Positions 1 through 16,248 of a stretch of DNA of 16,850 bases are shown here, piece after piece. This stretch comes from a virus (lineage: Duplodnaviria > Heunggongvirae > Uroviricota > Caudoviricetes): positions 1 through 16,850 of the IMG/VR virus record IMGVR_UViG_2778261504_000002. One strand, given 5' to 3'. The translations under genes and the position numbers were made by a program. Positions within the stretch are counted from its first letter, which is position 1; the number at the start of each line of letters is the position of its first letter. The notes under the pieces were generated by a model that saw only the letters and a list, made by a program, of their open reading frames with translations, was not told the origin of the DNA and did not search any database.

Positions 1-301
<301 letters not shown>

Positions 302-305
<4 letters not shown>

Positions 306-919: not shown

Positions 920-920
920 A

Positions 921-1478: not shown

Positions 1479-2050
1479 TGGATGACTCCTTTACGAAGCT
1501 GTTCGGCGATATCTTCGAGAACGCCATCAGAGAATGAACGGTCAAAATCGCCTTCCGGCGCATTGGCCATAAACTCAGTAGAGGTAAGAATCATCCGGGC
1601 AATATCAGCGGCGTTCTTCGCAGTATCATCAATAAAACCAGCTTCCCAGGCAGCCAGCATTCTGTTCGCCACAAAGTAAGCGCCCTCCTTGCGTGCTTCA
1701 GTCTTCACTTCAGGCAGAAAAGCATCGGTGGCTGGGGTTTCAGTAATATCATCTTCCCATTCGCTAAACTCCTCACGACAAAAGTCATTAAATTCCTTCT
1801 CAGATTGCTTAAGCGAGGAATTTTCAGCAGCCATCTTCGCGCATTTAGCCTCAAGGTTATCAATCGTGATTCCAGCAGAACGACACTCCCGCAACGCCGT
1901 TTCTAGTTTTGATTCAAGTTCACCGAACTTACGGACAAGATATTCATCGTTTGTTTCGTCAACCTTTAAATCACTTGGGATGCATTTACCTTTCAGAAAA
2001 CCATCCATCTCAATTAGTGTCATTTGTTTCATTTCTTCCCACTCCGCCAC
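1475..2050 (-). CDS. hypothetical protein
   Basis: 191-aa ORF in the same polarity, overlapping both neighbours. Acidic with a coiled-coil-like central region. Function unknown. Confidence 0.55.
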
Positions 2051-2193
2051 ATCGCATTCAGATATTTGTTGTCATTAACAGAACCGAAACTCTTTCTCTT
2101 AAGCAATTCCTCTCTCGATGGCATTGGCTTTGCGCGTTGGCGAATAATCATTTCTGCCGGAAGAATGCCGGGATTGTATGCAAGTCCTCTCAT
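2029..2193 (-). CDS. small hypothetical protein (start uncertain)
   Basis: Track ORF 2029..2343 overlaps the upstream gene in another frame. An internal ATG at 2193 is preceded by GAGGAA; an alternative ATG lies at 2211. About 55 aa. Confidence 0.3.
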
Positions 2194-2203
2194 GGTAAAT
2201 TCC

Positions 2204-2497
2204 TCAGTCATTACTGATAGCGCCATAGCGTGAGCGGTAATTACGCAGGCGCGGGTCAATTTCAGGGAAGTGGGTATATGTGGCTTTGCGGAATGGTCGG
2301 ATTGATGTCTGGTAAATTCGCTCGCGTTCTTCTTTCTCTGCAAGCCATATACAATGGCGAAATTCCTTTTCCTCTTTCGTTTCCTGCGGTAGCGACATTA
2401 TCCGATCGTAGTTTTTTCTGAATTTATCCAGCACCTCCGATACGGAATTGCCGGAACAGCGGCGCGCGTCATCCGCACCATACAGAGGCGCTGGCAT
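2204..2497 (-). CDS. hypothetical protein
   Basis: 97-aa ORF starting 16 nt downstream of the exonuclease stop with a GGAG-type ribosome-binding site. No recognisable domain. Confidence 0.5.
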
Positions 2498-2513
2498 GGT
2501 TTTCTCCTGTTGA

Positions 2514-3062
2514 TTATTTAGCTAACTTTTTCCAGATCGCTGAAACGTATTTGGCTTGGTGAATGGCATCATCAAGCGCGTTGTGGCGAGTTCCTTTGAA
2601 TGGCATATCTCGCTTAGGGTCTAATCCTATTACCCTCCCAAGTTCGACGATTGTTCTTACGTCGCGGTCATTCCACCACTGCCACGGAACTGGCTGCCCT
2701 GTCAGCGAATAACTGTTTCGGAGAATAACGCAGTCAAATGATGCTCCATTCCCCCAAACCTGAACGAATTTGTGGTTAGCGTTCTTTATGATGAATTCAG
2801 ATAACCATGAAAGAGCCGTTGAAAGCTCCTGAGTGTTGCTGGTTAGCGATTTTCTGGCTTCTTCACTCTGTTCCAGCCACCATAAAATCGTTGAAGCGTC
2901 AGGACGCGCCCGATATCGCATTGATGACTCAAGCGAGATATTTACCGAGAACTCTTCTCCTGTTTCTCCGGTATTCGGGTCAAAGAATACCGCCCCAATA
3001 GAAATAACTGGCGCATATGGCCCGTTGCCCATTGTTTCAAGGTCAACCATTAAGTGATTCAT
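2514..3062 (-). CDS. DnaQ-like (DEDDh) 3'-5' exonuclease
   Basis: 182-aa ORF with N-terminal MVDLETMG (Exo I DxE motif) and C-terminal HNALDDA (Exo III H-x4-D motif). Sits directly downstream of ssb in the recombination module. Confidence 0.75.
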   Translation of the reverse strand: MNHLMVDLETMGNGPYAPVISIGAVFFDPNTGETGEEFSVNISLESSMRYRARPDASTILWWLEQSEEARKSLTSNTQELSTALSWLSEFIIKNANHKFVQVWGNGASFDCVILRNSYSLTGQPVPWQWWNDRDVRTIVELGRVIGLDPKRDMPFKGTRHNALDDAIHQAKYVSAIWKKLAK

Positions 3063-3070
3063 GTAAGTCC

Positions 3071-3577
3071 TTAAATTGCGTGAATAGCGTGACGAGGGAA
3101 GGGGAGAGTTACTGGTGCAAAGGGTATATCGTCGTCAAAATCCATCGGAGGTTCGTTGTGTTGTGCTGGTGATGATTGCTGCTGTGGCTTCTGTGATTGC
3201 CTGCTGGCTGCTTGTTGTTTGCTGTCGCCAATTCCGCCAAGCATTTGCATCACGCCATTAATTCCGACATGAACCTCGGTTGTGTAACGGTCTTGCCCTG
3301 ACTGGTCTTTCCACTTTCTGGTTCTCAGCATTCCCTCGAAATAAATCTGATCACCTTTTTTCACATACTGCCCCACGACCTCAGCCAGTTTCCCGGATAT
3401 AGCAACACGATGCCATTCAGTCAATTCCTTTTGCTCGCCAGTATTTTTATCTCGCCATTGTTCTGACGTGGCTATTGTCAGGTTAGCGAACGCTGTACCT
3501 GATGGTGAGTATCGAACTTCCGGGTCTTGTCCTACCCGACCAAGGATAATCACCTTATTTACGCCTCTGCTTGCCAT
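3071..3577 (-). CDS. ssb: single-stranded DNA-binding protein
   Basis: N-terminal OB-fold sequence closely resembles E. coli SSB ([21 protein letters not shown]...TEWHRV), followed by a Q/S/P-rich linker and the acidic [10 protein letters not shown] tail. The ORF unusually continues 15 codons past DDDIPF. Confidence 0.9.
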
Positions 3578-4285
3578 TTATGCCGCCTGTTTTAGTTCGT
3601 TAACTCTGATGTTCATTACCTGAACGCATTTAGCCTGCGCCTCCTCATTGCCAGCCATTAATTGCCAGTCACGCTGATAACGCTCGATGAGTTTTTTCTT
3701 GTCAGTTTCTGTTGACGCATAATCGCTGAAGTCTTTCAGGATTTGTTCGCAGTCAACCGATGGAGATTTCTGGTTGGTATTTTCTGGTGATGGTTTGTTA
3801 TCTGATGCTGGTATTGCCCATCCCGGCAGCGATGGAGGGAGCCAGTAAAATCCTGTTCCATCCTTGAGTTTTGCCCTGTGCCATCCCTGCTTTTTATCGA
3901 GAGATGTTTGTGCGAAACCTTCCTCAAGGTTATACAGATACCGACCGATTCCCCACTGAACGGCAGCGCGCTTCATTGCACCGGAACGACCACCTTTGAC
4001 GGCTTCTACCTGCGTGTTTTCAGCAGCATCCCATTTGGTTACCCATTCGGAATCAATCTTTATTGATATGCCGCATTCAACGCCGCCGTTGTTGGGAATA
4101 TCGCGGTATTCATTGCGCCATCCTGCTTTGCCGCAAACATCGTCCAGGCGTTTCATGATTGCCCGGTTCGTTACATAAGCCAGCACCATAGCCCACACTT
4201 TGCCATCGCGTGTTTTACCGCTTTGCTGTATTCGCCATTCGATATCTTCAGGGCTGAATGGCTCATCGAATTTATTCAAATCCAT
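3578..4285 (-). CDS. single-strand annealing recombinase, Rad52/Sak-like
   Basis: 235-aa ORF immediately upstream of ssb and abutting it. The motif AMKRAAVQWGIGRYLY resembles the conserved Rad52-fold region. Start has a GAGGTG ribosome-binding site. Confidence 0.65.
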   Translation of the reverse strand: MDLNKFDEPFSPEDIEWRIQQSGKTRDGKVWAMVLAYVTNRAIMKRLDDVCGKAGWRNEYRDIPNNGGVECGISIKIDSEWVTKWDAAENTQVEAVKGGRSGAMKRAAVQWGIGRYLYNLEEGFAQTSLDKKQGWHRAKLKDGTGFYWLPPSLPGWAIPASDNKPSPENTNQKSPSVDCEQILKDFSDYASTETDKKKLIERYQRDWQLMAGNEEAQAKCVQVMNIRVNELKQAA

Positions 4286-4293
4286 AATTCACC

Positions 4294-4464
4294 TCAGAAT
4301 GGACACGGCCCAAGGAAATAACGCTGATTTAATACTTCAACTCGGGACAAATTAAGGCATACCCGCATTCCTTCGCGGTCGCCATTATGGCGATACCAGA
4401 GAGCTTTCTGCGTGTACATGCGTCTCTGTAACTTGCTCTCCTTCACTGTGGTTGCAAGTGACAT
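4294..4464 (-). CDS. small hypothetical ORF (56 aa)
   Basis: Hand-translated ORF below the track threshold (MSLATTVKESKLQRRMYTQ...), with AAGGAG 7 nt upstream of the ATG. Overlaps another small ORF (4385..4543) in a different frame, so at most one is likely fully real. Confidence 0.25.
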   Translation of the reverse strand: MSLATTVKESKLQRRMYTQKALWYRHNGDREGMRVCLNLSRVEVLNQRYFLGPCPF

Positions 4465-4543
4465 GAATATCTCCTTCGTTACCGATTAATTCTTTCATCT
4501 GACGAATGAATTCTTCGTCTGACCAGTTATCTGTAAAACTCAT
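4385..4543 (-). CDS. small hypothetical acidic ORF (52 aa)
   Basis: Hand-translated (MSFTDNWSDEEFIRQMKELIGNEGDIHV...). ATG overlaps the stop of the Kil-like ORF; ribosome-binding site is weak. Competes with 4294..4464. Confidence 0.25.
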   Translation of the reverse strand: MSFTDNWSDEEFIRQMKELIGNEGDIHVTCNHSEGEQVTETHVHAESSLVSP

Positions 4544-4692
4544 TTCCTGCGATACCACGGATGGTTGATAGCTGATTTCATCGCTTTATTTGCTTCAAGC
4601 CACATTTTTGAATCACCAATAAATCTGGCTATTACTGCTTTGTTCTGTGCAGCACGAAGCATCTGGTGATTGATGGCTATTTCATTGCGCAT
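4540..4692 (-). CDS. kil: Kil-like small protein (host division inhibitor family)
   Basis: Hand-translated 50-aa ORF MRNEIAINHQMLRAAQNKAVIARFIGDSKMWLEANKAMKSAINHPWYRRK. The FIGDxKM..EA core resembles lambda Kil as I recall it. GGAGG sits 5 nt upstream of the ATG. Position between cIII-like and the recombination genes matches lambda gene order. Confidence 0.45.
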   Translation of the reverse strand: MRNEIAINHQMLRAAQNKAVIARFIGDSKMWLEANKAMKSAINHPWYRRK

Positions 4693-4811
4693 AACGCCTC
4701 CAGTTGTTTCTTTGCTGCTCTGATTAATTGTTTAACTCGGCGTGATAATTCAGATTCGTGCGGGTAGAAAGCGGACATGACGCCGCTACCCGCGAGCTGA
4801 AAGTGCATCAT
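4677..4811 (-). CDS. cIII: cIII-like small protein (FtsH inhibitor family)
   Basis: Hand-translated 44-aa ORF MMHFQLAGSGVMSAFYPHESELSRRVKQLIRAAKKQLEALCAMK. The pattern AG..V....P.ES.L.R..R.L resembles lambda CIII (IAGWPVAGCPSESLLERITRKL). AAGGAG 6 nt upstream. The 79-aa track ORF 4677..4916 contains it, but its N-terminal part looks non-coding. Confidence 0.5.
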   Translation of the reverse strand: MMHFQLAGSGVMSAFYPHESELSRRVKQLIRAAKKQLEALCAMK

Positions 4812-4994
4812 GGGTAACTCCTTATATTTGATTGCATAACGAAAACGCCTCGAGTGAAGCGTTATTGGTATGCATATAAAAAAGCCCTCACACTGGAGGG
4901 CAAAGAAGATTTCCAATAATCAGAACAAGTCGGCTCCTGTTTAGTTACGAGCGACATTGCTCACATAGCAGACTCGCAAATCTGCTATAGGTGC

Positions 4995-5153
4995 TTATTC
5001 GCATCGCATGACAACATCAAATTTTTCGAGATTACTTTGTCGCAACAATCCTTCTTCTACGCGGTCAGCTTTTCTATAATTATCAAATTCGAAATGTTTA
5101 ATTACTTCTTTCGTTTCTCGCTCTATAACTTCAACAATGTATTTCTTATTCAT
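4995..5153 (-). CDS. small hypothetical ORF (about 52 aa)
   Basis: Hand-translated ORF (MNKKYIVEVIERETKEVIKHFEF...) whose ATG overlaps the stop of the upstream 98-aa gene (ATGA arrangement). AT-rich, below the track threshold. Confidence 0.3.
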   Translation of the reverse strand: MNKKYIVEVIERETKEVIKHFEFDNYRKADRVEEGLLRQSNLEKFDVVMRCE

Positions 5154-5449
5154 CATTCTTCCCCAAGAGCTTTTCTGATTGCTGCAAGACCTTTATTAAC
5201 AGCTCCATACCATTCTGGATATGTTGTCTTTGTTCTATTTTTGGTTTGCTTAAGTAATAACTGAAGTGCTTCGAGAAGGTCAGGTGCTGCCGCTATTAGA
5301 TTGGCATCTTCAATGCATTGAACTTCCTCACAGATTGCAATATACGAACGCCAGCCTGCGCCATTTTCAAGTGAGTCTGCCTGGATGATTTTAATCTCAT
5401 CGCCATCCATCATTATTTCCCACTTACCTTCAGTACCTTTAAATTCCAT
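5153..5449 (-). CDS. hypothetical protein
   Basis: 98-aa ORF in pL-operon polarity, immediately downstream of a terminator-like hairpin. No recognisable domain. Confidence 0.5.
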   Translation of the reverse strand: MEFKGTEGKWEIMMDGDEIKIIQADSLENGAGWRSYIAICEEVQCIEDANLIAAAPDLLEALQLLLKQTKNRTKTTYPEWYGAVNKGLAAIRKALGEE

Positions 5450-5470
5450 GTTAGCCTCTGTTGTTTATGC

Positions 5471-5496
5471 CAAAAATAAAGGCCGACTATTCGGCC
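5471..5496 (-). terminator. intrinsic terminator-like hairpin within the pL operon
   Basis: GGCCGA-N4-TCGGCC stem at 5481..5496, followed on the minus strand by TTTATTTTTG. The hairpin overlaps the stop codon of the 107-aa gene. A candidate N-suppressible terminator. Confidence 0.5.
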
Positions 5497-5810
5497 TTAT
5501 CTACATTCCTGAACCAAACGCAGATCGGACCGTCTTCTGTATCGTGAATCGAACCGACAAACCATCCTTCTCCATCTGGCATGCTTGGCTCCCATCCACT
5601 GATGTTTTGATTCCCATCTTCAAAATACGCGTCAATTACCGTTTGATTGTTGTCGTTTTCCATTTCAACAATTGATGATTCAATGCCATGCTGCTTGCAG
5701 AAAGATCTGAACTCATCAGCTGAAATTACCTCTCTATCCCCAAACAGGTTGGCGTATTCTGGGTGCGTCCAGTAGCCATCCTCGCTTCGCTCTACTACTA
5801 ATGCTTCCAT
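5487..5810 (-). CDS. hypothetical, strongly acidic protein
   Basis: 107-aa ORF with a GAGGTG ribosome-binding site. About 24 Asp/Glu against about 6 basic residues. No recognisable domain. Confidence 0.55.
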   Translation of the reverse strand: MEALVVERSEDGYWTHPEYANLFGDREVISADEFRSFCKQHGIESSIVEMENDNNQTVIDAYFEDGNQNISGWEPSMPDGEGWFVGSIHDTEDGPICVWFRNVDKAE

Positions 5811-5990
5811 ATCTCACCTCAAATAAGTGGTTTGCTGCCTAATTTCATTTTCTGGCGACCAACACAAGTCACACCCATTTCACTGCGTGGCTTGCTGTAG
5901 TAAAGATTGTGCCTGTCTTTTAACCACATCAGGCTCGGTGGTTCTCGTGTACCCCTACAGCGAGAAAAATAGTAAAATCCTCTCACCCCC

Positions 5991-6353
5991 TTATTTTATC
6001 AGGGGGATATCTCCTTCAGTTCTGACCATTCGCCTTAATACTTTCCTTAAGTCGATGTAAAGTTGAAGGTCTCCATTTGCTGCGGCATCAGCCATTTTTT
6101 GCCTGACAAGCAGTAATGTTTCATACGGCTCAATAAGAATATCGTCATGAGTAATTAGGTGAAGCGTTGCCGCATCAACTATTCCTAGAGCTGCGCCAAG
6201 TATCAAAAATTCCCTGCTATTTTTGTCACATGAGGAGGTAAGCGTATTTAGCGCATACCTAATATTCTTTATAGCTGTTGTTAATGCTGCAATTTCTTCT
6301 ATGGCGTCTTCTTCAATGAGCTTTTTAAGCTCATATTTTTCTTCCTGACCCAT
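5991..6353 (-). CDS. hypothetical protein
   Basis: Track ORF 5991..6422 trimmed to the ATG at 6353 (MGQEEKYELKK...), which follows a GAGG ribosome-binding site and lies 2 nt downstream of the N stop. A hairpin CCCCCT-N9-AGGGGG overlaps its stop codon. Confidence 0.5.
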   Translation of the reverse strand: MGQEEKYELKKLIEEDAIEEIAALTTAIKNIRYALNTLTSSCDKNSREFLILGAALGIVDAATLHLITHDDILIEPYETLLLVRQKMADAAANGDLQLYIDLRKVLRRMVRTEGDIPLIK

Positions 6354-6355
6354 AA

Positions 6356-6739
6356 TTACCTCGCCGTCAGTTGTTTTGATTTCCGGTAGCCTGCCGCGTA
6401 AATGGCTACGTTTGGAAGACATACACCAGTTTCTGGTTGCTTATGTCCAAACTCATTCGCGTACACAATGGCCGCTCGCTCCAGATTGCGTCTGTATTCT
6501 TTCTGTTGCCAGATCACGTCCTGTGCCATGAACTTAATTGGCTTAGCGTCTTCTATGCGCTCAGGCGTTTCGTGAGTACCTTTAGCCTGAATCTGCGCTC
6601 TGCTTAGAGTAGGGCGGTGTAATACTTCTGAACTTATTGCTTCTTCGCGGGCCAGTACGCCGTTAGCTAATGCCTTTGCCTTTAAACGCTCACGACGACG
6701 AGAACGTGAATTGCCTTTGAACTGAGTTCTGCGTGTCAT
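6356..6739 (-). CDS. N: N-type transcription antitermination protein (P22 gp24 family)
   Basis: Track ORF 6356..6841 trimmed to the ATG at 6739, preceded by AGGAGG. The N-terminus has an arginine-rich motif (TRRTQFKGNSRSRRRERLKAKA). The C-terminus LPNVAIYAAGYRKSKQLTAR closely matches the end of P22 gp24 (LLPGVALYAAGHRKSKQITAR) as I recall it. Confidence 0.75.
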   Translation of the reverse strand: MTRRTQFKGNSRSRRRERLKAKALANGVLAREEAISSEVLHRPTLSRAQIQAKGTHETPERIEDAKPIKFMAQDVIWQQKEYRRNLERAAIVYANEFGHKQPETGVCLPNVAIYAAGYRKSKQLTAR

Positions 6740-6868
6740 ATAGACCTCCTGATGAACTTTGGTGGTGAATACAGCCGGGCGACTAACTCCGGTCGCGTAA
6801 TCATTGCAAAGCGCCTCCGCCGAGAAGGTTAGCTTCTGCATTCACCCCAAAGTTCACTTTGGTTATTG

Positions 6869-6883
6869 CGCTTTGTCAGCGCC
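6869..6883 (-). promoter_or_regulatory. nutL boxB hairpin (P22-type)
   Basis: Minus strand reads GCGCTGACAAAGCGC, a 5-bp stem with a GACAA loop, between pL and N. A convincing boxA was not found. Confidence 0.6.
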
Positions 6884-6950
6884 GTAGATTCATATTCGAA
6901 TCGTTGTATATTCACCGCCCTGGTGAGTAGTGCGTCCTGCTGATGGGTGA

Positions 6951-6998
6951 ACTTTATCGGAATGATAAATTAATGGCAATAGCAAAATGATAAATTCT
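6951..6998 (-). promoter_or_regulatory. pL promoter with OL operator repeats
   Basis: Minus strand reads TTGCCA-17 nt-TAAAGT (-35 at 6974..6979, -10 at 6951..6956). The 10-mer ATGATAAATT occurs at 6962..6971 and 6987..6996 and again in the cI-cro intergenic region. Confidence 0.55.
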
Positions 6999-7170
6999 CT
7001 TGGTTTTCAAATATCGTATTGATTCTTATGGTGTTTTATTTTGTTGTAGGAATTCGACAGGATAAATAAAGAGATTTGAGGGAGATCTGGATTGCGTTGT
7101 TTAGCAAGTTGTATCTATTTATTTTTCAACAAATACAATTGGTTATGTGTTTTTAGGTGTGGGGATCGTG

Positions 7171-7200
7171 AGGCAAAGAAAACCCGGCGCTGAGGCCGGG
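7171..7200 (-). terminator. intrinsic terminator downstream of the TAC module
   Basis: CCCGGC-N6-GCCGGG hairpin at 7183..7200, followed on the minus strand by TTTTCTTTG. Lies 10 nt after the stop of the chaperone gene. Confidence 0.55.
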
Positions 7201-7209
7201 TGGGGAATT

Positions 7210-7614
7210 TCACTTATTACTGTTCGTTTCCATGGGATTGGCCAAGAAATCAAAATAAGGCAGAGTGAACCTACCAAGGTTTGACATGAGGATAATTTGC
7301 TCGGCATATGTTTTTATATAGGGATATGCCATATTGGGAGCAATGGACCTTACCTCATATGATTTTGCCATTTCATGAGAAAAATCATCTTCTGACCGGA
7401 AGTCAAAGTCGTATGTGATGTCCATCTCAAGCCTGCCTTCAATAGTTACGGAGGCAAAATATCTCACTCTAAATAGCTTTGAATCCTTCACATTAGTGTA
7501 AAGTTCATTATTTAGATTAACGGTTGTTTTTATGGCTTTTTTTGCTGTTGAATCGCCTTCTAGCCGTGTCATAACCAAGCGTTCAACTTTTTTGCTAATG
7601 AGTTCAATTTTCAT
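7210..7614 (-). CDS. SecB-like chaperone of a toxin-antitoxin-chaperone (TAC) system
   Basis: 134-aa ORF whose start overlaps the antitoxin stop (ATGA). C-terminal region IAPNMAYPYIKTYAEQIILMSNLGRFTLPYFDF resembles SecB ([25 protein letters not shown]) and the M. tuberculosis TAC chaperone Rv1957 (YPYIREYVYDLTGRLALPPL). AT-rich compared with flanking phage DNA. Similarity judged from memory. Confidence 0.6.
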   Translation of the reverse strand: MKIELISKKVERLVMTRLEGDSTAKKAIKTTVNLNNELYTNVKDSKLFRVRYFASVTIEGRLEMDITYDFDFRSEDDFSHEMAKSYEVRSIAPNMAYPYIKTYAEQIILMSNLGRFTLPYFDFLANPMETNSNK

Positions 7615-8267
7615 GGTAATAATAAGTAATTTCCGTCAGAAGTCATTTCGTCATTCAGGTTGCTAGCCGCTGTGAAACTTGATGACAAGTTACTTATCAA
7701 AGAAAAAACATTCCGTTTTTCTTTGCATTTGCCATTACCCCTTACTGCGCTGAACAACATTTTTGAAAAGTAAGATTCTGTAGCCTTTTCAGCGAAATAA
7801 GCAGAAGGTGATGTGACGGCTGACTCACACCGAGCAATGACGCTAGTCATGGCTGTTTCTTCTTCCTCTGCGTCAACTAGGCTCCATTCAATTGCGCTCA
7901 TATCTTGAATTAAGATATCTGCAGGAATTCCAAGTCCGTCATGTAGTCTACGGATCATTGAAAGACTTAATGGACGCTTACGATTTAAGACCTCAGATAC
8001 TTTAGATGCTGAGCCAATGTATTGTTTCATATCGGCATAAGAGAGGCCTTGTTGATCCATACGGAACTTGATTGCTTCTATGGGATCTGGCTTGTCCATA
8101 GGGAACTCGCGTGACTCATAGTGCTCGATAAGCAAGCCTAGTAGTTCAAACTCATCAAAATCTTCAGTTCCAGGTTGTAAATCACTAGACGCAAGTTCAA
8201 TGAGCCTTTCCATAGCTGCAGCATGCTCTTCACTATTTTTAATGATGCGCCAGCTAGTTCGATTCAT
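7611..8267 (-). CDS. higA: HigA-like HTH antitoxin with a roughly 95-aa C-terminal extension
   Basis: Residues about 60-125 (IKFRMDQQGLSYADMKQYIGSASKVSEVLNRKRPLSLSMIRRLHDGLGIPADIL) resemble E. coli HigA. The ORF continues about 95 aa beyond the point where canonical HigA ends. Start overlaps the toxin stop. Confidence 0.7.
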   Translation of the reverse strand: MNRTSWRIIKNSEEHAAAMERLIELASSDLQPGTEDFDEFELLGLLIEHYESREFPMDKPDPIEAIKFRMDQQGLSYADMKQYIGSASKVSEVLNRKRPLSLSMIRRLHDGLGIPADILIQDMSAIEWSLVDAEEEETAMTSVIARCESAVTSPSAYFAEKATESYFSKMLFSAVRGNGKCKEKRNVFSLISNLSSSFTAASNLNDEMTSDGNYLLLP

Positions 8268-8551
8268 TTAAGCCTCCACTTGTCGTACTCTGCATGAGTT
8301 CCAACTCTTTCAACTATGACCATTCCTGCCTGGTAAACAACTTGGACAACGAGCCGATAGTTATTGCCTTTTATATTAAAAATTACCCTGTTGTTAGGAA
8401 GGAAGTCGGCAGAATTAAATCTATTCCGTATGTCTTGAGTCGTTTTCCAGTTTTCTCTTATCACTTCATCATACCAAGAGTCTAAAGCCCCCTTGGCCTG
8501 ATTGTGCTTCCGGCTAAAACTGTGAAGCTTCTCTACGTTTAAGACCTTCAT
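8264..8551 (-). CDS. higB: HigB-like toxin (RelE/ParE-fold mRNA interferase)
   Basis: 95-aa ORF. C-terminal RVIFNIKGNNYRLVVQVVYQAGMVIVERVGTHAEYDKW aligns with E. coli HigB (HYVFNVGGNELRVVAMVFFESQKCYIREVMTHKEYD) as I recall it. Toxin-first order and tight coupling to the antitoxin. Confidence 0.75.
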   Translation of the reverse strand: MKVLNVEKLHSFSRKHNQAKGALDSWYDEVIRENWKTTQDIRNRFNSADFLPNNRVIFNIKGNNYRLVVQVVYQAGMVIVERVGTHAEYDKWRLK

Positions 8552-8563
8552 AATCCGATTTTG

Positions 8564-8605
8564 TTCCCTCTTTGGGAATTATAGATTCATTTCCCATAAA
8601 GGGAA
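8564..8605 (-). promoter_or_regulatory. TAC promoter with paired inverted-repeat operators
   Basis: Perfect TATAAT on the minus strand (plus 8578..8583), flanked by two copies of TTCCC-N5-GGGAA (8564..8578 and 8591..8605), within 60 nt upstream of the higB ATG. The proximal repeat also covers the AGAGGGAA ribosome-binding site. Confidence 0.45.
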
Positions 8606-8687
8606 TCTGTATTTTTATCCAGAAATGCTATGTACATCACCCAAACGTCTCTTCAGGCCACTGGTTACCAGCTATGTGACGATGAAG

Positions 8688-9392
8688 TCACGAACTTTTC
8701 AGCCACTCCCTTGCCTCGATGTCATCCAGATGGCGAGATTGCTTCAGAATACCAGCCACATACTCCACCTTTGCTACTTGATGATAAGGCAACGTTATTG
8801 GCCTGTGGTCCTGGTTGATGCTTGTAAATTGGTATTCTCCGTCTCTGTCATAGCCAAGAACTTTGATCATGTTGTGTCCTTCAACAGTTCTGACAAACAC
8901 CTCATCACCCGGGAATACTTTGGTGTTAGGCTCAATGAGTACATATTCTCCTGATTTTATTCTGGGCCACATGCTGTCTCCTTTCACACGAAGACCAAAG
9001 GCATCTGGATCATCGCTATAAATTTTGAGCCACCCATCGCGCTCTTCGGTCATCTCGATGGCACCATCAACACCAAGAATTGCCTCACCAACCACGCGCA
9101 CTAACCCTTTTCTTACCTGACCGACAAAAGTTAAAGAATCTGAGCATGATGCAATTGGTGTTACATCATGTACCAAATCAAGCCACCCATTAGGTAACCC
9201 AAGCGCGGCTTCAAATTTTCTTGCTAGTTTATCCCCTATGTTTCGAGTGCTTTTTTCACCGGAGACTTGCGTGAGTTGAGAAGGGCTAACCCCAAGCTTA
9301 TCGGCAAAGCTTGCATTAGTGTTACCCGCGATTTTTTTATGCTCATCTAGCAAAAACGCCAGATTCGATTTGCGAATATCTTTGTTTTCCAT
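8688..9392 (-). CDS. cI: CI-like prophage repressor (HTH plus S24 LexA-like peptidase domain)
   Basis: 234-aa ORF transcribed away from cro. N-terminal HTH (NASFADKLGVSPSQLTQV) and a C-terminal region with the GDSMWP Ser-protease motif and a downstream Lys, as in autocleaving repressors. Sequence is unlike lambda, 434 or P22 repressors as far as I recall. Confidence 0.85.
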   Translation of the reverse strand: MENKDIRKSNLAFLLDEHKKIAGNTNASFADKLGVSPSQLTQVSGEKSTRNIGDKLARKFEAALGLPNGWLDLVHDVTPIASCSDSLTFVGQVRKGLVRVVGEAILGVDGAIEMTEERDGWLKIYSDDPDAFGLRVKGDSMWPRIKSGEYVLIEPNTKVFPGDEVFVRTVEGHNMIKVLGYDRDGEYQFTSINQDHRPITLPYHQVAKVEYVAGILKQSRHLDDIEAREWLKSS

Positions 9393-9419
9393 CTCACAAT
9401 TTTCCCTCTATTTAGCAAA

Positions 9420-9500
9420 TGGATAAATACGCAATATGATAAATTTACATTGCGGATGATTTATCAAAATGGTAAAGTTGTTCTGTGTGATAAACGGAGG
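9420..9500. promoter_or_regulatory. OR operator region with pR (and presumably pRM)
   Basis: Plus strand reads TTGCGG-17 nt-TAAAGT (-35 at 9450..9455, -10 at 9473..9478) upstream of cro. Operator-like repeats ATGATAAATT (9436..9445), ATGATTTATCA (9456..9466) and TGATAAAC (9488..9495). Architecture mirrors pL. Confidence 0.5.
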
Positions 9501-9505
9501 CACTA

Positions 9506-9739
9506 ATGAGTAATGAACTACTACGCTGGCGAAAAGAGGCTTCTAGTGAGGAATGGAAGCGACTCGCCGCATTAGCGAAAACTTCAGTTGGCTATCTTGA
9601 CCAGATTGCATATGGATTTCGAAGAGCTTCCCCTGATAAAGCGAATGCAATCGAAGAAGCTACTCGTAATTTCACGGGTTATAAACCTGTGAAAAAGGAA
9701 AACCTAGTGTTCGTATCGCGTAGAGCATCGGCTGCATAA
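9506..9739 (+). CDS. cro: Cro-like HTH regulator
   Basis: 77-aa ORF transcribed away from cI, with a GGAGG ribosome-binding site. First gene of the rightward operon. Family assignment is by position and size rather than strong sequence recall. Confidence 0.6.
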   Translation: MSNELLRWRKEASSEEWKRLAALAKTSVGYLDQIAYGFRRASPDKANAIEEATRNFTGYKPVKKENLVFVSRRASAA

Positions 9740-9777
9740 GTAACACCGCTATTTTCACAATGGACATTCGTCCTACG

Positions 9778-9792
9778 TCGCTGACAAAGCGA
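9778..9792 (+). promoter_or_regulatory. nutR boxB-like hairpin
   Basis: TCGCTGACAAAGCGA: 5-bp stem with the same GACAA loop as the nutL boxB. Located between cro and cII. Confidence 0.5.
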
Positions 9793-9877
9793 GTCCCAAT
9801 ATATCTGACCAACTAAGGCCACATGCGTTTCCACGCATACCTTTCAACTAACTATTCACTATTGGAAATCTTAAGAA

Positions 9878-10177
9878 ATGGAACAAACAAGTTACAGCAA
9901 ACTATCACAGCGAGAAATTGATCGCGCTGAAACTGATTTACTCATCAACCTGTCAACGCTTACCCAGCGCGGTCTGGCAAAGATGATTGGCTGTCATGAA
10001 TCGAAGATAAGCAGAACGGACTGGAGATTTATTGCTTCGGTCTTGTGTGCTTTCGGAATGGCATCAGACATCAGTCCGATTAGCAGAGCTTTTAAGTATG
10101 CGCTTGATGGACTCACCAATAAAAAACGCCCGGTGTGCAAGACCGAGCGTTCTGAACAAATCCAGATGGAATTCTGA
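9878..10177 (+). CDS. cII: CII transcriptional activator
   Basis: C-terminus LTNKKRPVCKTERSEQIQMEF matches lambda CII (ILTNKKRPAATERSEQIQMEF). The HTH region differs from lambda. Confidence 0.9.
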   Translation: MEQTSYSKLSQREIDRAETDLLINLSTLTQRGLAKMIGCHESKISRTDWRFIASVLCAFGMASDISPISRAFKYALDGLTNKKRPVCKTERSEQIQMEF

Positions 10178-10199
10178 GGGAATTACTGGATCAATCCAC
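10119..10199 (-). ncRNA. oop: oop-like antisense RNA
   Basis: The region over the cII 3' end and the cII-O junction matches lambda oop as I recall it. On the minus strand it ends in a hairpin (CGCTCGG...CCGGGCG) plus TTTTTTAT. Confidence 0.45.
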
Positions 10200-10209
10200 A
10201 GGAGTCATT

Positions 10210-11148
10210 ATGACAAATACAGCAAAAATACTCAACTTCGGCAGAGGTAACTTTGCCGAACAGGAGCGTAATGTGGCAGATCTCGATGATGGTTACGCCA
10301 GACTATCAAATATGCTGCTTGAGGCCTATTCAGGCGCAGATCTGACCAAGCGACAGTTTAAAGTGCTGCTTGCCATTCTGCGTAAAACCTATGGGTGGAA
10401 TAAACCAATGGACAGAATCACCGATTCTCAACTTAGCGAGATTACAAAGTTACCTGTCAAACGGTGCAATGAAGCCAAGTTAGAACTCGTCAGAATGAAT
10501 ATTATCAAGCAGCAAGGCGGCATGTTTGGACCAAATAAAAACATCTCAGAATGGTGCATCCCTCAAAACGAGGGAGGTTCCCCTAAAATGAGGGACATCC
10601 CTCAAAACGAGGGAAAATCCCCTAAAACGAGGGATAAAACATCCCTCAAATTAGGGGATTGCTATCCCTCAAAACAGGGGGACACAAAAGACACTATTAC
10701 AAAAGAAAAAAGAAAAGATTATTCGTCCGAGAATTCTGGCGAATCCTCTGACCAGCCAGAAAACGATCTTTCTGTGGTTAAACCGGATGCTGCAATTCAG
10801 AGCGGCAGCAAGTGGGGAACAGCAGAAGACCTGACCGCCGCAGAGTGGATGTTTGACATGGTGAAGACCATCGCACCATCAGCCAGAAAACCGAATTTTG
10901 CAGGGTGGGCTAACGATATCCGCCTGATGCGTGAACGTGACGGACGTAACCACCGCGATATGTGTGTGCTTTTCCGCTGGGCCTGCCAGGACAACTTCTG
11001 GTCCGGTAACGTGCTGAGTCCGGCCAAACTCCGCGACAAGTGGACCCAGCTCGAAATCAACCGTAACAAGCAACAGGCAGCCGTGACAGCCAGCAAACCA
11101 AAACTCGACCTGACAAACACAGACTGGATTTACGGGGTGGATCTATGA
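10210..11148 (+). CDS. O: replication initiator O
   Basis: Near-identical to lambda O along its length (MTNTAKILNFGRGNFA...TNTDWIYGVDL), with an extra 13 aa (GGSPKMRDIPQNE) in the iteron-encoded segment. Confidence 0.95.
   Translation: MTNTAKILNFGRGNFAEQERNVADLDDGYARLSNMLLEAYSGADLTKRQFKVLLAILRKTYGWNKPMDRITDSQLSEITKLPVKRCNEAKLELVRMNIIKQQGGMFGPNKNISEWCIPQNEGGSPKMRDIPQNEGKSPKTRDKTSLKLGDCYPSKQGDTKDTITKEKRKDYSSENSGESSDQPENDLSVVKPDAAIQSGSKWGTAEDLTAAEWMFDMVKTIAPSARKPNFAGWANDIRLMRERDGRNHRDMCVLFRWACQDNFWSGNVLSPAKLRDKWTQLEINRNKQQAAVTASKPKLDLTNTDWIYGVDL
10559..10682 (+). repeat. ori-lambda iterons (six copies) with adjacent AT-rich region
   Basis: Six tandem roughly 18-19 bp repeats of the TCCCTCAAAACGAGGGA type inside O, followed by the AT-rich stretch at 10683..10720. 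Canonical lambda has four as I recall. Confidence 0.85.
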
Positions 11149-11846
11149 AAAACATCGCCGCACAGATGGTTAACTTTGACCGTGAGCAGATGCGTCGGAT
11201 CGCCAACAACATGCCGGAACAGTACGACGAAAAGCCTCAGGTACAGCAGGTAGCGCAGATCATCAACGGTGTGTTCAGCCAGTTACTGGCAACTTTCCCG
11301 GCGAGCCTGGCTAACCGTGACCAGAACGAACTGAACGAAATCCGCCGCCAGTGGGTTCTGGCTTTCCGGGAAAACGGGATCACCACAATGGAACAGGTTA
11401 ACGCAGGAATGCGCGTAGCCCGTCGGCAGAATCGACCATTTCTGCCATCACCCGGGCAGTTTGTTGCATGGTGCCGGGAAGAAGCATCCGTTATCGCCGG
11501 ACTGCCAAACGTCAGCGAGCTGGTTGATATGGTTTACGAGTATTGCCGGAAGCGAGGCCTGTATCCGGATGCGGAGTCTTATCCGTGGAAATCAAACGCG
11601 CACTACTGGCTGGTTACCAACCTGTATCAGAACATGCGGGCCAATGCGCTTACTGATGCGGAATTACGCCGTAAGGCCGCAGATGAGCTTGTCCATATGA
11701 CTGCGAGAATTAACCGTGGTGAGGCGATCCCTGAACCAGTAAAACAACTTCCTGTCATGGGCGGTAGACCTCTAAATCGTGCACAGGCTCTGGCGAAGAT
11801 CGCAGAACTCAAAGCTAAGTTCGGACTGAAAGGAGCAAGTGTATGA
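11145..11846 (+). CDS. P: replication protein P (DnaB helicase loader)
   Basis: Essentially identical to lambda P (MKNIAAQMVNFDREQMRRIANNMPEQYDEK...KFGLKGASV). Start overlaps the O stop. Confidence 0.95.
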   Translation: MKNIAAQMVNFDREQMRRIANNMPEQYDEKPQVQQVAQIINGVFSQLLATFPASLANRDQNELNEIRRQWVLAFRENGITTMEQVNAGMRVARRQNRPFLPSPGQFVAWCREEASVIAGLPNVSELVDMVYEYCRKRGLYPDAESYPWKSNAHYWLVTNLYQNMRANALTDAELRRKAADELVHMTARINRGEAIPEPVKQLPVMGGRPLNRAQALAKIAELKAKFGLKGASV

Positions 11847-12133
11847 CGGGCAAAGAGGCAATTATTCATTACCTGGGGACGCATAATAGCTTCTGTGCGC
11901 CGGACGTTGCCGCGCTAACAGGCGCAACAGTAACCAGCATAAATCAGGCCGCAGCTAAAATGGCACGGGCAGGTCTTCTGGTTATCGAAGGTAAGGTCTG
12001 GCGAACGGTGTATTACCGGTTTGCTACCAGGGAAGAACGGGAAGGAAAGGTGAGCACGAACCTGATTTTTAAGGAGTGTCGCCAGAGTGCCGCGATGAAA
12101 CGGGTATTGGCGGTATATGGAGTTAAAAGATGA
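11843..12133 (+). CDS. ren: Ren
   Basis: 96-aa ORF matching lambda Ren (MTGKEAIIHYLGTHNSFCAPD...). Start overlaps the P stop. Confidence 0.9.
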   Translation: MTGKEAIIHYLGTHNSFCAPDVAALTGATVTSINQAAAKMARAGLLVIEGKVWRTVYYRFATREEREGKVSTNLIFKECRQSAAMKRVLAVYGVKR

Positions 12134-12158
12134 CCATCTACATCACTGAGCTAATGAC

Positions 12159-12190
12159 AGGCCTGCTGGTAATCGCAGGCCTTTTTATTT
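12159..12190 (+). terminator. tR2-like intrinsic terminator
   Basis: Perfect 8-bp stem AGGCCTGC / GCAGGCCT with an 8-nt loop, followed by TTTTATTT. Lies directly downstream of ren, as in lambda. Confidence 0.75.
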
Positions 12191-12203
12191 GGGGGAGAGG
12201 GAA

Positions 12204-12506
12204 GTGAACGATAGCTACCGACAGTTTGAAAACTGGTGGTCAAAAGACAAAAGCCAGTTCACGGGAGACGATGAATTAAAAGAGTTTGCCTGGGTGATAT
12301 GGCAGGCATCGCGCTCTGCTATTGAACTGGATATCGACTGGCCCGAATCGAATGACGACTTTTGGAAAGATGGTGAAGAAGGTGCTTATGCGATGGGTTA
12401 TGAGGATGGGCGTGACAAAACGGTAATTGCAGTAATGAAAGCTATCAGAGCCGCTGGAATTAAAGAGAAGAATTTCGATGAAGCAAACAATATTCCTCCG
12501 AACTAA
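12204..12506 (+). CDS. hypothetical acidic protein
   Basis: Track ORF 12189..12506. Probable GTG start at 12204 preceded by GGGGGAGAGGGAA. Lies between tR2 and ninB, where lambda has no gene. Confidence 0.45.
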   Translation: MNDSYRQFENWWSKDKSQFTGDDELKEFAWVIWQASRSAIELDIDWPESNDDFWKDGEEGAYAMGYEDGRDKTVIAVMKAIRAAGIKEKNFDEANNIPPN

Positions 12507-12888
12507 GCAACAACAGCAAGCCGCAATCAACGCCATCCTCGCAACACCACTCGATAAAGACAAGCCAGTCACCATCCGCATTACTGACTACAAGCGCAAC
12601 CTTGACCAGAACGCAAAATTTCACGCGATGCTGGCGGATATCGCACGTCAGGTTCAATGGTGCGATAAGTGGTTAAAACCAGAACAATGGAAGGTTTTGT
12701 TGATTAGCGGTCATGCAGTGGCAACAAAGCAGGAAGCTGATGTTTTGCCCGGCCTTGAAGGCGAATACGTCAACATTCGCGAAAGTAGCGCGCAGATGAG
12801 TGTGAAGCGTATGGCAAGTCTGATTGAGTACACGACAGCATGGGCTATTGGTCAGGGCGTCAGATTTACCGACAGGAGGTACGAATGA
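12478..12888 (+). CDS. ninB: NinB (recombination protein)
   Basis: 136-aa ORF with the NinB pattern (AAINAIL...[33 protein letters not shown]), comparable to lambda NinB. Confidence 0.85.
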
Positions 12889-13061
12889 GACGACAGCGAC
12901 GAAGTATCACCGACATAATCTGTGAAAACTGCAAATACCTTCCAACGAAACGCTCCAGAAATAAACGCAAGCCAATCCCAAAAGAATCTGACGTAAAAAC
13001 CTTCAACTACACGGCTCACCTGTGGGATATCCGGTGGCTAAGACATCGTGCGAGGAAATGA
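12885..13061 (+). CDS. ninE: NinE
   Basis: Track ORF 12840..13061 trimmed to the ATG at 12885 ([27 protein letters not shown]...), near-identical to lambda NinE. ATGA overlap with ninB. Confidence 0.85.
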
Positions 13062-13063
13062 CA

Positions 13064-13465
13064 ATGCTTTTAATTCAACCTGGATTTGGACTTAGCATCA
13101 AAAAAGGCCACATGTTTGGCGAGAAAGAGTCACAACGAAAAATGGTGTCTATCCGGTTGCCATTTATCAGTATTTATTGGCTAAACAGGGAGGCAACAAA
13201 TTATTGGTATACATGCGCCAGAGCAGCATTTAACGACCCTGACTGGTTTGTGAAAAACCACCACGCAGTTCGTCAGGCAAAGAGAAAGGCCAATATGACA
13301 TACATGAAGGCGTATCAAAAAGCATGGAAAGAACACCGCGATCGATACCAACAAGACATGGAAAAGCTTGAATCAGAAAACATGGAATTAAGACGAAAGC
13401 TCGGTGAAGCAAAACGAGACATTGATGCTTACAAGCGACTTTTTAATGGTGAAAGCCATGCTTAG
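13064..13465 (+). CDS. hypothetical protein (start uncertain)
   Basis: Track ORF 13022..13465. ATG at 13064 has GAGGAA 7 nt upstream. The C-terminal part is coiled-coil-like. Lies between ninE and ninF, which abut each other in lambda. Confidence 0.4.
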   Translation: MLLIQPGFGLSIKKGHMFGEKESQRKMVSIRLPFISIYWLNREATNYWYTCARAAFNDPDWFVKNHHAVRQAKRKANMTYMKAYQKAWKEHRDRYQQDMEKLESENMELRRKLGEAKRDIDAYKRLFNGESHA

Positions 13466-13634
13466 CCCATCCCAATCCCTTCAATACCAGAAAGAAAGCG
13501 TCGAGCGAGCTTTAACGTGCGCTAACTGCGGTCAGAAGCTGCATGTGCTGGAAGTTCACGTGTGTGAGCACTGCTGCGCAGAACTGATGAGCGATCCGAA
13601 TAGCTCAATGTACGAGGAAGAAGACGATGAGTGA
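13458..13634 (+). CDS. ninF: NinF
   Basis: Track ORF 13404..13634 trimmed to MLSPSQSLQYQKESVERALTCANCGQKLHVLEVHVCEHCCAELMSDPNSSM..., which matches lambda NinF. Confidence 0.85.
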   Translation: MLSPSQSLQYQKESVERALTCANCGQKLHVLEVHVCEHCCAELMSDPNSSMYEEEDDE

Positions 13635-14136
13635 TGTTAAAGAAAAAGATATCCCCGGCTTTGAGGGTATATATAAAGTAACTGAAAATGGAGACATCAT
13701 TTCATGCCGTAAATCAAAAAAATTATCTCATGGCATTAAACCAGGAGGATATGCATTTGTCGGTCTGTATCCAGGTGGCGGGAAAAGACCATCATATAAA
13801 ATGGTTCACAGAATTGTTGCAGAAGTATTTATTGATAACCCAGATGGCAAACCGGAAGTTAATCACAAGGATGGAAATAAACTTAATAATAAAGTTGAAA
13901 ATCTTGAGTGGGTAACGCGAACAGAAAATGCGAAACATGGATTTGATTCCGGATTGCTTGTTCATGGGTTTAATCATCACTTCTGCAAACTAACGCCAGA
14001 ACAAGTGAAATCAATATATAAATCAAAAGGCAAATACAGAGATATAGCCAAAGAATTTGGTGTTTGTGCGCAGACAGTGTGCAACATAAAAAACAAATCA
14101 GCGTACCGACGTTTTTTGGAGGGGATTGATGTTTAG
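13627..14136 (+). CDS. HNH homing-type endonuclease
   Basis: 169-aa ORF with a NUMOD4-like N-terminus (GFEGIYKVTENGDIIS) and an HNH motif (VNHKDGNKLNNKVENLEWVTRTENAKHG). Markedly AT-rich codon usage relative to neighbours. Confidence 0.75.
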   Translation: MSDVKEKDIPGFEGIYKVTENGDIISCRKSKKLSHGIKPGGYAFVGLYPGGGKRPSYKMVHRIVAEVFIDNPDGKPEVNHKDGNKLNNKVENLEWVTRTENAKHGFDSGLLVHGFNHHFCKLTPEQVKSIYKSKGKYRDIAKEFGVCAQTVCNIKNKSAYRRFLEGIDV

Positions 14137-14404
14137 AAGCAAAAAATGGCTTCAGGCAGTCAGGGATATTGAATTTTGCGTTCTTTGCGGAAGATACGGA
14201 GTTCAGGCCGCTCATAGAAATGAAGGGAAGGGGGTTGGGATTAAAGTAGATGATTGCCTTACTGCTGCGCTATGTGTTGATTGTCATTCAAGAATTGATA
14301 ATGGGAGAGATATGAGCAGGGAAGAGCGAAGGGCTGAAATGGATCGGGCCATTGTGCTTACCCTTAAAAAATTGGTTAACAATGGGAGGGTGTTTGTCCA
14401 ATGA
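14126..14404 (+). CDS. DUF1364/YbcO-like Cys-rich protein (putative nuclease)
   Basis: 92-aa ORF with CVLCG...AAH...CVDCH..ID, similar in layout to prophage YbcO-type proteins. Sits directly upstream of rusA, as in DLP12-like nin regions. Confidence 0.55.
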   Translation: MMFRSKKWLQAVRDIEFCVLCGRYGVQAAHRNEGKGVGIKVDDCLTAALCVDCHSRIDNGRDMSREERRAEMDRAIVLTLKKLVNNGRVFVQ

Positions 14405-14763
14405 ACGAATATCAGTTTGTGCTTCCATACCCGCCGTCGGTGAATACCTACTGGCGAAGACGGGGAAGCCAATACTACATCAGCGATAAAGGCCAGAAAT
14501 ACCGAAAAGACGTTCAGCAAATCATCCGCCAACTTAAGTTAGACATTTTCACCAAATCACGACTCCGCATCAAAGTCATCGCAGACGCTCCAGACTCCCG
14601 CCGCCGCGACCTCGACAACATCCTGAAAGGTTTACTCGACTCACTTATCCACGCCGGATTTGCGGAAGACGACGAGCAATTCGATGACATTCGCGTAATT
14701 CGTGGTGTGAAAGTACCAGGCGGACGGCTTGGAATAAAAATCACCGAACTGGAGAACGTATGA
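14401..14763 (+). CDS. rusA: RusA Holliday-junction resolvase
   Basis: 120-aa ORF. LPYPPSVNTYWRRRG...DRRRRDLDNILKGLLDSL...GGRLGIKITE matches E. coli RusA motifs (LPWPPSNNRYY...DRRRRDLDN...GGRLELTITE). Confidence 0.9.
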   Translation: MNEYQFVLPYPPSVNTYWRRRGSQYYISDKGQKYRKDVQQIIRQLKLDIFTKSRLRIKVIADAPDSRRRDLDNILKGLLDSLIHAGFAEDDEQFDDIRVIRGVKVPGGRLGIKITELENV

Positions 14764-14948
14764 ACGCCACAATTCAAACGATACCAGAACTGCTTATACA
14801 GGCACGAGGCAATCAGACCGAAGTGGCGAGGATGCTTTCCTGCGCAAGAGGAACAGTGCTCAAGTACAACCGAGACAGAAAAGGCGAGCGTCACGTAATA
14901 GTTAACGGCGTCCTGATGGTCACGCCAGGCAAAAAGGGAAGACGATGA
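14760..14948 (+). CDS. ninH: NinH
   Basis: 62-aa ORF with GNQTEVARMLSCARGTVLKY...HVIVNGVLMV, matching lambda NinH (GNQTEVARRLKCSRGTVRKY...HAIVNDVLMV). Confidence 0.8.
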   Translation: MNATIQTIPELLIQARGNQTEVARMLSCARGTVLKYNRDRKGERHVIVNGVLMVTPGKKGRR

Positions 14949-15433
14949 GCATAAGAGAGCTAAACCTCACCAAAGAACAGCACGATTGGCTGAATGGCTG
15001 GCTTGAACTGTGGGGCGCATGGGTTTATTCAGGTCGTCTGGAAAAGCGCATGAGCAGCGTAATAGCGAAGTTCATGGAGAGCGTAGAGCCGGGAAGAGTT
15101 ATGACAAGGCCAATGTGTAATGATGATGATGGAATGTTGATTTCTCAGGTCGTCGATTCCGTCATGTACATTGACAAGAAAGCCTTTGGCATCCTCCTCA
15201 GCTACTACGCCCACGGTTCTTCCAAGCACGCCATTGCATCTTACTATCATCGCGTCGCAAGACCTCGCAAGATGTTATGCCGGGGCGGCGGGCGCATTCA
15301 AAAACCATCGCTCGCAACCTGTCGTCGGGAAGTTGACGAAATCCTCAATGCCTCGTTGTTTATGATTTACCCGGTTCTGGATAGTGCGTTTAAAAACCGG
15401 AAACGTGTAGAGAAAATTAAACATGTAGCGTAG
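14945..15433 (+). CDS. Q: late-gene antiterminator Q (non-lambda type)
   Basis: 162-aa ORF with the WGAW...CNDDDG...YYAHGSS pattern of the QuuD/phage 21-82-type Q family. Unlike lambda Q. Directly upstream of the late promoter region. Confidence 0.8.
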   Translation: MSIRELNLTKEQHDWLNGWLELWGAWVYSGRLEKRMSSVIAKFMESVEPGRVMTRPMCNDDDGMLISQVVDSVMYIDKKAFGILLSYYAHGSSKHAIASYYHRVARPRKMLCRGGGRIQKPSLATCRREVDEILNASLFMIYPVLDSAFKNRKRVEKIKHVA

Positions 15434-15439
15434 AACGTG

Positions 15440-15468: not shown

Positions 15469-15478
15469 ATTCGCATAA

Positions 15479-15924: not shown

Positions 15925-16248
15925 ATGAAGATGCCAGAAAAACATGACCTGTTAGCCGCCATTCTCGCGGCAAAGGAACAAGGCATCGGGGCAATCCTTG
16001 CGTTTGCAATGGCGTACCTTCGCGGCAGATATAATGGCGGTGCGTTTACAAAAACAGTAATCGACGCAACGATGTGCGCCATTATCGCCTGGTTCATTCG
16101 TGACCTTCTCGACTTCGCCGGACTAAGTAGCAATCTCGCTTATATAACGAGCGTGTTTATCGGCTACATCGGTACTGACTCGATTGGTTCGCTTATCAAA
16201 CGCTTCGCTGCTAAAAAAGCCGGAGTAGAAGATGGTGGAAATCAATAA
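15925..16248 (+). CDS. S: holin S (S107/S105 dual start)
   Basis: Near-identical to lambda S ([39 protein letters not shown]...), with the Met-Lys-Met dual-start motif. An upstream CCCC-TTATT-GGGG hairpin overlaps the ribosome-binding site. Confidence 0.95.

Follow-up and report, generated by a model that had tools for sequence, protein, structure and literature searches.

The minus-strand module of 1342 nt at positions 7210..8551 of a 16.85-kb stretch of Caudoviricetes DNA (positions 1 to 16,850 of IMG/VR record IMGVR_UViG_2778261504_000002, which was analysed over its whole length and is called the window here) is very probably, at about 93%, an allele of HigBAC, a toxin-antitoxin-chaperone (TAC) anti-phage system, lying in the variable slot behind the cI gene of a lambdoid prophage with H-19B-type immunity. 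Neither the system nor its mechanism or rex-slot placement is new: Mets et al. (bioRxiv 10.1101/2024.02.24.581848) characterised HigBAC of Escherichia coli NT1F31 on a lambdoid prophage and placed it behind cI, at the site of RexAB in lambda. An earlier note on this DNA, made from the sequence alone, knew of no described HigBA-SecB TAC at this position, a claim to novelty which the NT1F31 system overturns. The HigBAC study was reportedly published later in Cell Host & Microbe in 2024.

A direct comparison of the window with the NT1F31 chromosome (NZ_CP045190.1) gave seven differences over the 1342 nt of the operon (99.5% identity), with 1/288 nt changed in higB, 4/657 nt in higA and 2/405 nt in higC, and each of the three proteins contains a single amino acid change (R31I in HigB, Q185R in HigA and T27A in HigC). 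The neighbouring cI gene differs at 9/705 nt with one amino acid change at residue 234, and the 150 nt upstream of higB differ at 7/150 positions, mostly in the part adjoining cI, while the similarity ends just beyond the terminator following higC, from where the pL/N arms of the two prophages are different. Dataset S1 of the preprint holds the higB DNA, the 150 nt upstream and the construct primers (10.1101/2024.02.24.581848), and 27/30 of the construct-primer segments have an exact match in the window. The two loci share the protein lengths (95, 218 and 134 aa), gene order, gene overlaps, upstream cI gene, terminator and location behind cI, and are told apart by the one substitution per protein and the different prophage backbone past the terminator. 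According to the preprint, NT1F31 HigA is a protein of 218 aa with a chaperone-addiction (ChAD) region at residues 122-218, the aromatic residues W128, F158, F188 and Y214 and a Leu-Pro end, and the pocket residues of HigC are Y39, N41, R49 and D71 (10.1101/2024.02.24.581848). All eight of these functionally mapped residues are retained at identical positions in the HigA and HigC proteins of the window, as is the Leu-Pro C-terminus, and the HigA residues thus sit exactly where the NT1F31 protein was mutated or mapped. Judged by their sequences, all three window proteins are orthologous to NT1F31 HigB, HigA and HigC.

The earlier note had proposed three tightly coupled co-directional genes for a HigB-like toxin, a HigA-like antitoxin and a SecB-like chaperone, and the list of open reading frames (ORFs) contains all three on the minus strand at exactly the coordinates given in Table 1, with the higB/higA and higA/higC junctions both formed by a 4-nt ATGA start/stop overlap. 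The first gene encodes a HigB-like toxin of the RelE fold, as shown by a match to Pfam HigB_toxin (E 4.5e-30) with a score of 104.2 bits, far above the gathering cutoff of 27, a match to the PADLOC profile PD-Lambda-2_A (E 2.5e-42), and matches to the E. coli K-12 HigB structures 5ycl/5ifg (E 1e-4), in which the C-terminal TH-x-EYD stretch was aligned. The second protein is likewise a HigA-like antitoxin with a helix-turn-helix (HTH) domain, with residues 5-127 matching positions 3-125 of the 402 positions of PADLOC PD-Lambda-2_B (E 3.8e-50), a weak match of residues 67-118 to Pfam HTH_3 (E 3.6e-4, under the gathering score) and matches to the E. coli HigA structures 5ycl_A/5ifg_B (E 5e-5). 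Beyond approximately residue 127 the remaining 90-95 residues gave no domain match in the Pfam, PADLOC or structure searches. Residues 1-132 are almost invariant among the orthologues from Klebsiella, Salmonella and Serratia, and the tail diverges between orthologues but keeps the spaced aromatics W128, F158, F188 and Y/F214. The module hence has the architecture of the TAC class: three co-directional coupled genes with one terminator after the third, and an antitoxin with a C-terminal ChAD extension beyond its canonical domain (homology stops at about residue 127 of 218).

The third protein, HigC, had no match in Pfam or NCBIfam, including the Pfam SecB family, and PDB searches, whether started from HigC alone or from a profile of 20 sequences, returned chance matches only. 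The sole sequence profile recognising HigC was PADLOC PD-T4-9_C (CmdC, E 3.2e-11), and with the other sequence searches empty, its identity rests on this profile and on the comparison of folds. Homologues were found in 28 clusters, with all named sources belonging to the Enterobacterales (Escherichia, Klebsiella, Citrobacter, Salmonella, Serratia and Pantoea), and Pfam annotation was absent from all 28 clusters. An AlphaFold model built from the homologue alignment (mean predicted local distance difference test (pLDDT) score 86.8, predicted template-modelling (pTM) score 0.80) has four strands and a long helix, and its top Foldseek match in the PDB is M. tuberculosis Rv1957 with bound ChAD peptide (5mtw, E 5e-7, TM 0.75), followed by the SecB proteins of E. 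coli and H. influenzae (1qyn/1fx3); the top 19 PDB matches consist of Rv1957 and SecB, at E 5e-7 to 1e-4 and TM 0.66-0.77. A SecB fold is supported for the third protein by these comparisons of the predicted structure. The profile and structure searches, which the earlier note had suggested as a check on its assignments, therefore left both the HigB-like toxin and the SecB-like chaperone standing.

The position of the module in the immunity region is fixed by the flanking cI, Cro, CII and N genes (Table 1). Along the minus strand the order is cI, the higBAC module, the terminator, oL/pL and N, which puts the module in the slot occupied by rexAB in lambda, as had been proposed from the sequence. 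The same repressor is labelled cI in the records of phages H-19B, BP-4795 and ST2-8624, while the N gene is represented in the window by a longest ORF of 161 aa, compared with the 127-aa product given in the H-19B record. The putative operator-like motifs in the oL/pL region (AATGATAAATT) are repeated, and related motifs are also found at oR (9411-9476). The three minus-strand ORFs are not chance ORFs, as seen from their strong family scores (HigB_toxin, PD-Lambda-2_A, PD-Lambda-2_B and PD-T4-9_C), and given this support, the plus-strand ORFs overlapping the module (7532..7666, 8294..8485 and 8625..8954) were considered spurious.

With regard to expression signals, the module was predicted to have its own promoter and terminator. 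The terminator is a strong intrinsic hairpin located 3' of higC, with a stem of 7 bp including six GC pairs followed by a T-run (7201..7182, minus strand), and is the single one for the module; the corresponding NT1F31 sequence, which differs by 1 nt, was cloned as 'native terminator' (10.1101/2024.02.24.581848). The promoter stood in part: a scan of the 136-nt cI-higB gap for consensus σ70 sites gave no promoter and no -35 match, an outcome explained by the poor -35, but the gap does contain a perfect -10 box (TATAAT, 8583..8578, minus strand) with a 15-nt TTCCC-N5-GGGAA palindrome on each side (8591-8605 and 8564-8578) and A-rich sequence upstream of the palindromes. A block of approximately 60 nt ahead of higB is conserved in the cassettes of NT1F31, Klebsiella, Salmonella and Serratia, with unrelated sequence farther upstream, and within this block neither the TATAAT nor the palindrome arms vary, whereas the palindrome spacers do. 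This conservation across genera suggests that the block is likely to be a HigA-autoregulated promoter belonging to the cassette. Term searches in the main text of the Mets et al. preprint, and the sections of it that were read, gave no mention of such a block. A σ70 match inside higA (7646..7619, minus strand) was attributed to chance, with the site count below the expectation from shuffled sequence. Directly after the cI stop codon there is an inverted repeat (GTGAC-N6-GTCAC, 8666-8681, minus strand) which lacks a T-run and so is no canonical terminator; transcripts from pRM may hence run on into higBAC, as they do into rexAB in lambda.

Next we compared the module with other known systems. 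Lambda RexAB, a lysogen-expressed exclusion function, occupies the same slot between cI and oL/pL, and acts by membrane depolarisation. There was no Rex family among the Pfam and PADLOC matches of the three module proteins, and the mechanism of RexAB differs from that of HigBAC, so that the two have only the genomic slot in common. The M. tuberculosis HigB1-HigA1-Rv1957 system, a chromosomal TAC which was reportedly first described as stress-responsive, has the same order of toxin, antitoxin and chaperone genes, as the earlier note had pointed out, an antitoxin with a C-terminal ChAD, and a SecB-fold chaperone which is the best match of HigC, although Rv1957 and HigC are only ~16% identical. 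In contrast to this chromosomal system the window module is prophage-borne, and its ChAD tail is more than twice the length of the mycobacterial one and ends in Leu-Pro instead of the Val-Ala degron for ClpXP. CmdTAC (PD-T4-9; Vassallo et al. 2022, PMC9519451) is also a prophage-borne anti-phage TAC with a chaperone profile that recognises HigC, but it has an mRNA ADP-ribosyltransferase as toxin and an unrelated antitoxin, and protects against T-even phages rather than lambda-like siphoviruses; neither CmdT nor CmdA was found in the window module, which matched PD-T4-9_C as its sole PD-T4-9 profile. The toxin and the HigA core (the N-terminal 125 residues) are clear homologues of the corresponding parts of PD-Lambda-2 (Vassallo et al. 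2022, PMC9519451), which defends against lambda-vir, whereas the accessory module differs: here the HigA core continues into a ChAD tail and a SecB-like chaperone gene comes third. None of the module proteins matched PD-Lambda-2_C in PADLOC, and as it has neither the peptidase domain nor a P4-like third gene, the module was rejected as a PD-Lambda-2 system despite its strong A and B matches.

We expanded the search to phage records and to complete E. coli genomes. Thirty phage records and 88/5426 complete E. coli genomes (~1.6%) contain the window allele with 100% identity, and of the 90 cassette-carrying E. coli genomes, 86 have the window allele and four match the NT1F31 sequence at 99% identity or more. 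Carriers of the window allele include Shiga toxin (Stx) 1- and Stx2-converting phages, among them BP-4795 and ST2-8624, and genomes of Shiga toxin-producing E. coli (STEC) of the O26 and O157 groups. A homologue of the lambda major tail-tube protein gpV was not detected in BP-4795 or ST2-8624, both of which carry the identical cassette: BP-4795 is long-tailed with a major tail subunit (36187-37032) unrelated to gpV, and the record of ST2-8624 (Sepvirinae, Traversvirus) has no annotated major tail (tube) protein. The absence of gpV in these carriers fits with a cassette which would not trigger itself upon induction of its own prophage. In Klebsiella aerogenes and Salmonella the cassettes are also located between an S24 repressor and N, with different cro and other early genes adjoining, whereas the Serratia marcescens orthologue (HigC 63% identical, genes at ~3055-4405 of the locus) is located between a DUF927 protein and P22 gp7/ejection genes; this copy outside the post-cI slot suggests that the cassette can move from one prophage hotspot to another. 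In RefSeq, HigC is a 'hypothetical protein' and HigA a 'helix-turn-helix domain-containing protein', and in phage records the cassette genes are listed as 'hypothetical' or 'transcriptional regulator'. In the H-19B record AF034975.3 the interval between N and cI (2625-4572) is wholly unannotated, and is similar in size to the higBAC-bearing interval of the window.

The experiments on NT1F31 provide a mechanism which may apply to the window allele. In the preprint, HigC relieves the toxicity that NT1F31 HigBA shows in its absence, and HigA lacking residues 122-218 is chaperone-independent; the relief by HigC needs W128, F158 and Y214 collectively and fails with HigC R49A. The block imposed by HigB is specific to protein synthesis, the operon confers protection against lambda-vir and Bas25, phages that escape have the substitution S54P in gpV, and gpV was shown to bind HigC and to trigger toxicity (10.1101/2024.02.24.581848). 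By analogy, in an uninfected lysogen the operon, transcribed from a HigA-operated promoter of its own, by pRM read-through or in both ways, would produce the HigB RNase, the HigA antitoxin and HigC, a tetrameric SecB-like holdase. HigA alone would be non-functional owing to its disordered ChAD tail of 97 residues, and would neutralise HigB only when HigC holds the regularly spaced aromatics W128, F158, F188 and Y214 of this tail in pockets that include R49. An infecting lambda-like siphovirus would then make gpV, of which an aromatic and acidic loop in the nascent protein would compete for HigC, and with HigC lost to gpV, HigA would fail and HigB would halt translation, with the result that the infection cycle of the phage is cut short or restricted. 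The exclusion or abortive-infection role in a lysogen proposed in the earlier note agrees with these published experiments on a near-identical allele.

There is a strong case that the window allele (HigB I31, HigA R185, HigC A27) behaves like that of NT1F31, as the substitutions are at variable positions, HigA residue 185 is in the divergent tail, and most carriers have the window allele. Some points weigh against reading the module as a functional HigBAC defence system. The published experiments concern the NT1F31 allele and not the exact allele of the window, the defence assays used a constitutive Ptet promoter on a multicopy pBR322 plasmid together with the 150-bp native upstream region rather than a single-copy lysogen (10.1101/2024.02.24.581848), and the consensus scan found no σ70 promoter in the cI-higB gap, where the -35 is poor. 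In addition, Q185R is located three residues before F188, and HigC T27A and HigA Q185R could in principle shift the trigger specificity or the ChAD affinity. A decayed or specificity-shifted allele, in which R31I in HigB, Q185R in HigA or T27A in HigC makes the NT1F31 mechanism non-transferable, would draw on the presence of one amino acid difference in each of the three proteins and on the location of residue 185 in what the preprint describes as an aggregation-prone ChAD patch. We consider this extremely improbable, since the three ORFs are intact with their overlaps preserved, the mapped functional residues are all kept, and the window allele is not a rare variant but the majority form, without any change across the 88 genomes and 30 phage records. 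The substituted positions also tolerate variation: at HigB position 31 the orthologues have I, V, K or R and K-12 HigB has Ala, and HigC position 27 is variable in the alignment and lies in the sole low-confidence loop of the model.

A different function for an intact module is that of an addiction or stabilisation system of the prophage, acting by post-segregational killing or by a stress-responsive growth arrest of the kind put forward for the M. tuberculosis TAC, with defence being incidental or an artefact of plasmid over-expression. Type II toxin-antitoxin loci classically stabilise mobile elements, the first description of a TAC was reportedly as a stress-responsive system, and the Ptet-driven pBR322 constructs of the published defence assays involved no lysogen. 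This explanation is nevertheless improbable, as it does not readily account for a specific trigger (gpV), escape by the single-residue change S54P and direct binding of HigC to gpV, all reported in the preprint for a 99.5% identical allele, nor for the location of the cassette in the slot of the RexAB exclusion system, and other TACs (CmdTAC and MqsRAC) are also anti-phage, in the case of CmdTAC in its native strain. HigBAC as an anti-phage system remains the preferred reading, and its recognition adds little scientifically since the system, mechanism and rex-slot placement have been published. The gain is a practical one: copies of the cassette can now be given a name in all their carriers, including many Stx1- and Stx2-converting phages. 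It also raises a testable question, namely if incoming lambdoid phages are restricted by the HigBAC of STEC lysogens, with a resulting influence on the traffic of Stx phages. A more far-reaching version, in which the STEC allele (I31/R185/A27) is expressed in single copy from its own promoter independently of pRM, senses different or a broader range of tail tubes, governs superinfection or co-residence of lambdoid and Stx phages in O26/O157 strains, and is escaped by its carriers through the lack of a gpV-type tube, is unlikely as a whole, but if true would make HigBAC a determinant of Stx-phage ecology.

Table 1. Predicted features of the higBAC module, the surrounding immunity region and the right part of the window.
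Feature	Position	Strand	Evidence or remark
N antiterminator	6356..6841	-	Pfam N_peptide E 5.1e-16; H-19B and BP-4795 annotation
pL-like promoter	6979..6951	-	Promoter scan
Putative oL/pL region, repeated operator-like AATGATAAATT motifs	6951..7070	-	Motif and promoter scans; function by analogy with lambda
Intrinsic terminator, ACCCGGC-loop-GCCGGGT then TTTCTTT	7172..7201	-	Terminator scan
higC, 134-aa SecB-like TAC chaperone, proposed phage sensor	7210..7614	-	PADLOC CmdC profile, predicted fold
higA, complete ORF, 218 aa	7611..8267	-	ORF list
higA C-terminal ChAD extension, aa 122-218	7614..7904	-	Beyond domain matches; stop codon 7611-7613
higA N-terminal part, aa 1-121, HigA-type antitoxin with HTH domain	7905..8267	-	PADLOC, Pfam, structures
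higB, 95-aa RelE-fold toxin, predicted ribosome-dependent mRNA interferase	8264..8551	-	Pfam, PADLOC, structure matches
Putative cassette promoter/operator block	8564..8626	-	Inverted repeats, cross-genus conservation
cI-type repressor (HTH and S24 peptidase), H-19B immunity type	8688..9392	-	Pfam Peptidase_S24 E 3.8e-16
Cro	9506..9739	+	Divergent from cI
CII	9878..10177	+	Divergent from cI
HNH_3 and NUMOD4 homing-endonuclease-like ORF, 169 aa	13627-14136	+	nin region, between NinB and RusA
Q antiterminator gene	14945..15433		
Holin gene	15925..16248		

Finally, we also looked at the rest of the window. Coverage of the 16.85 kb stayed below 80% in every phage record and complete E. coli genome, so that the window is a mosaic. 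Scans for tRNA genes and Rfam families in the window came back empty. Only ~490 nt separate the Q and holin genes, which leaves no room for stxAB at its usual site; the prophage in the window is itself not Stx-converting, though it has the immunity type of H-19B and Stx phages, and the term 'Stx phage' fits other carriers of the cassette. The left arm (21-4285, minus strand) is P22-like rather than lambda-like, with genes for a Lar restriction-alleviation protein, Ead/Ea22, the anti-RecBCD protein Abc2, an Rv2179c-like 3'-5' exonuclease, a single-stranded DNA-binding protein (SSB) and a recombinase of the Erf/Rad52 family.

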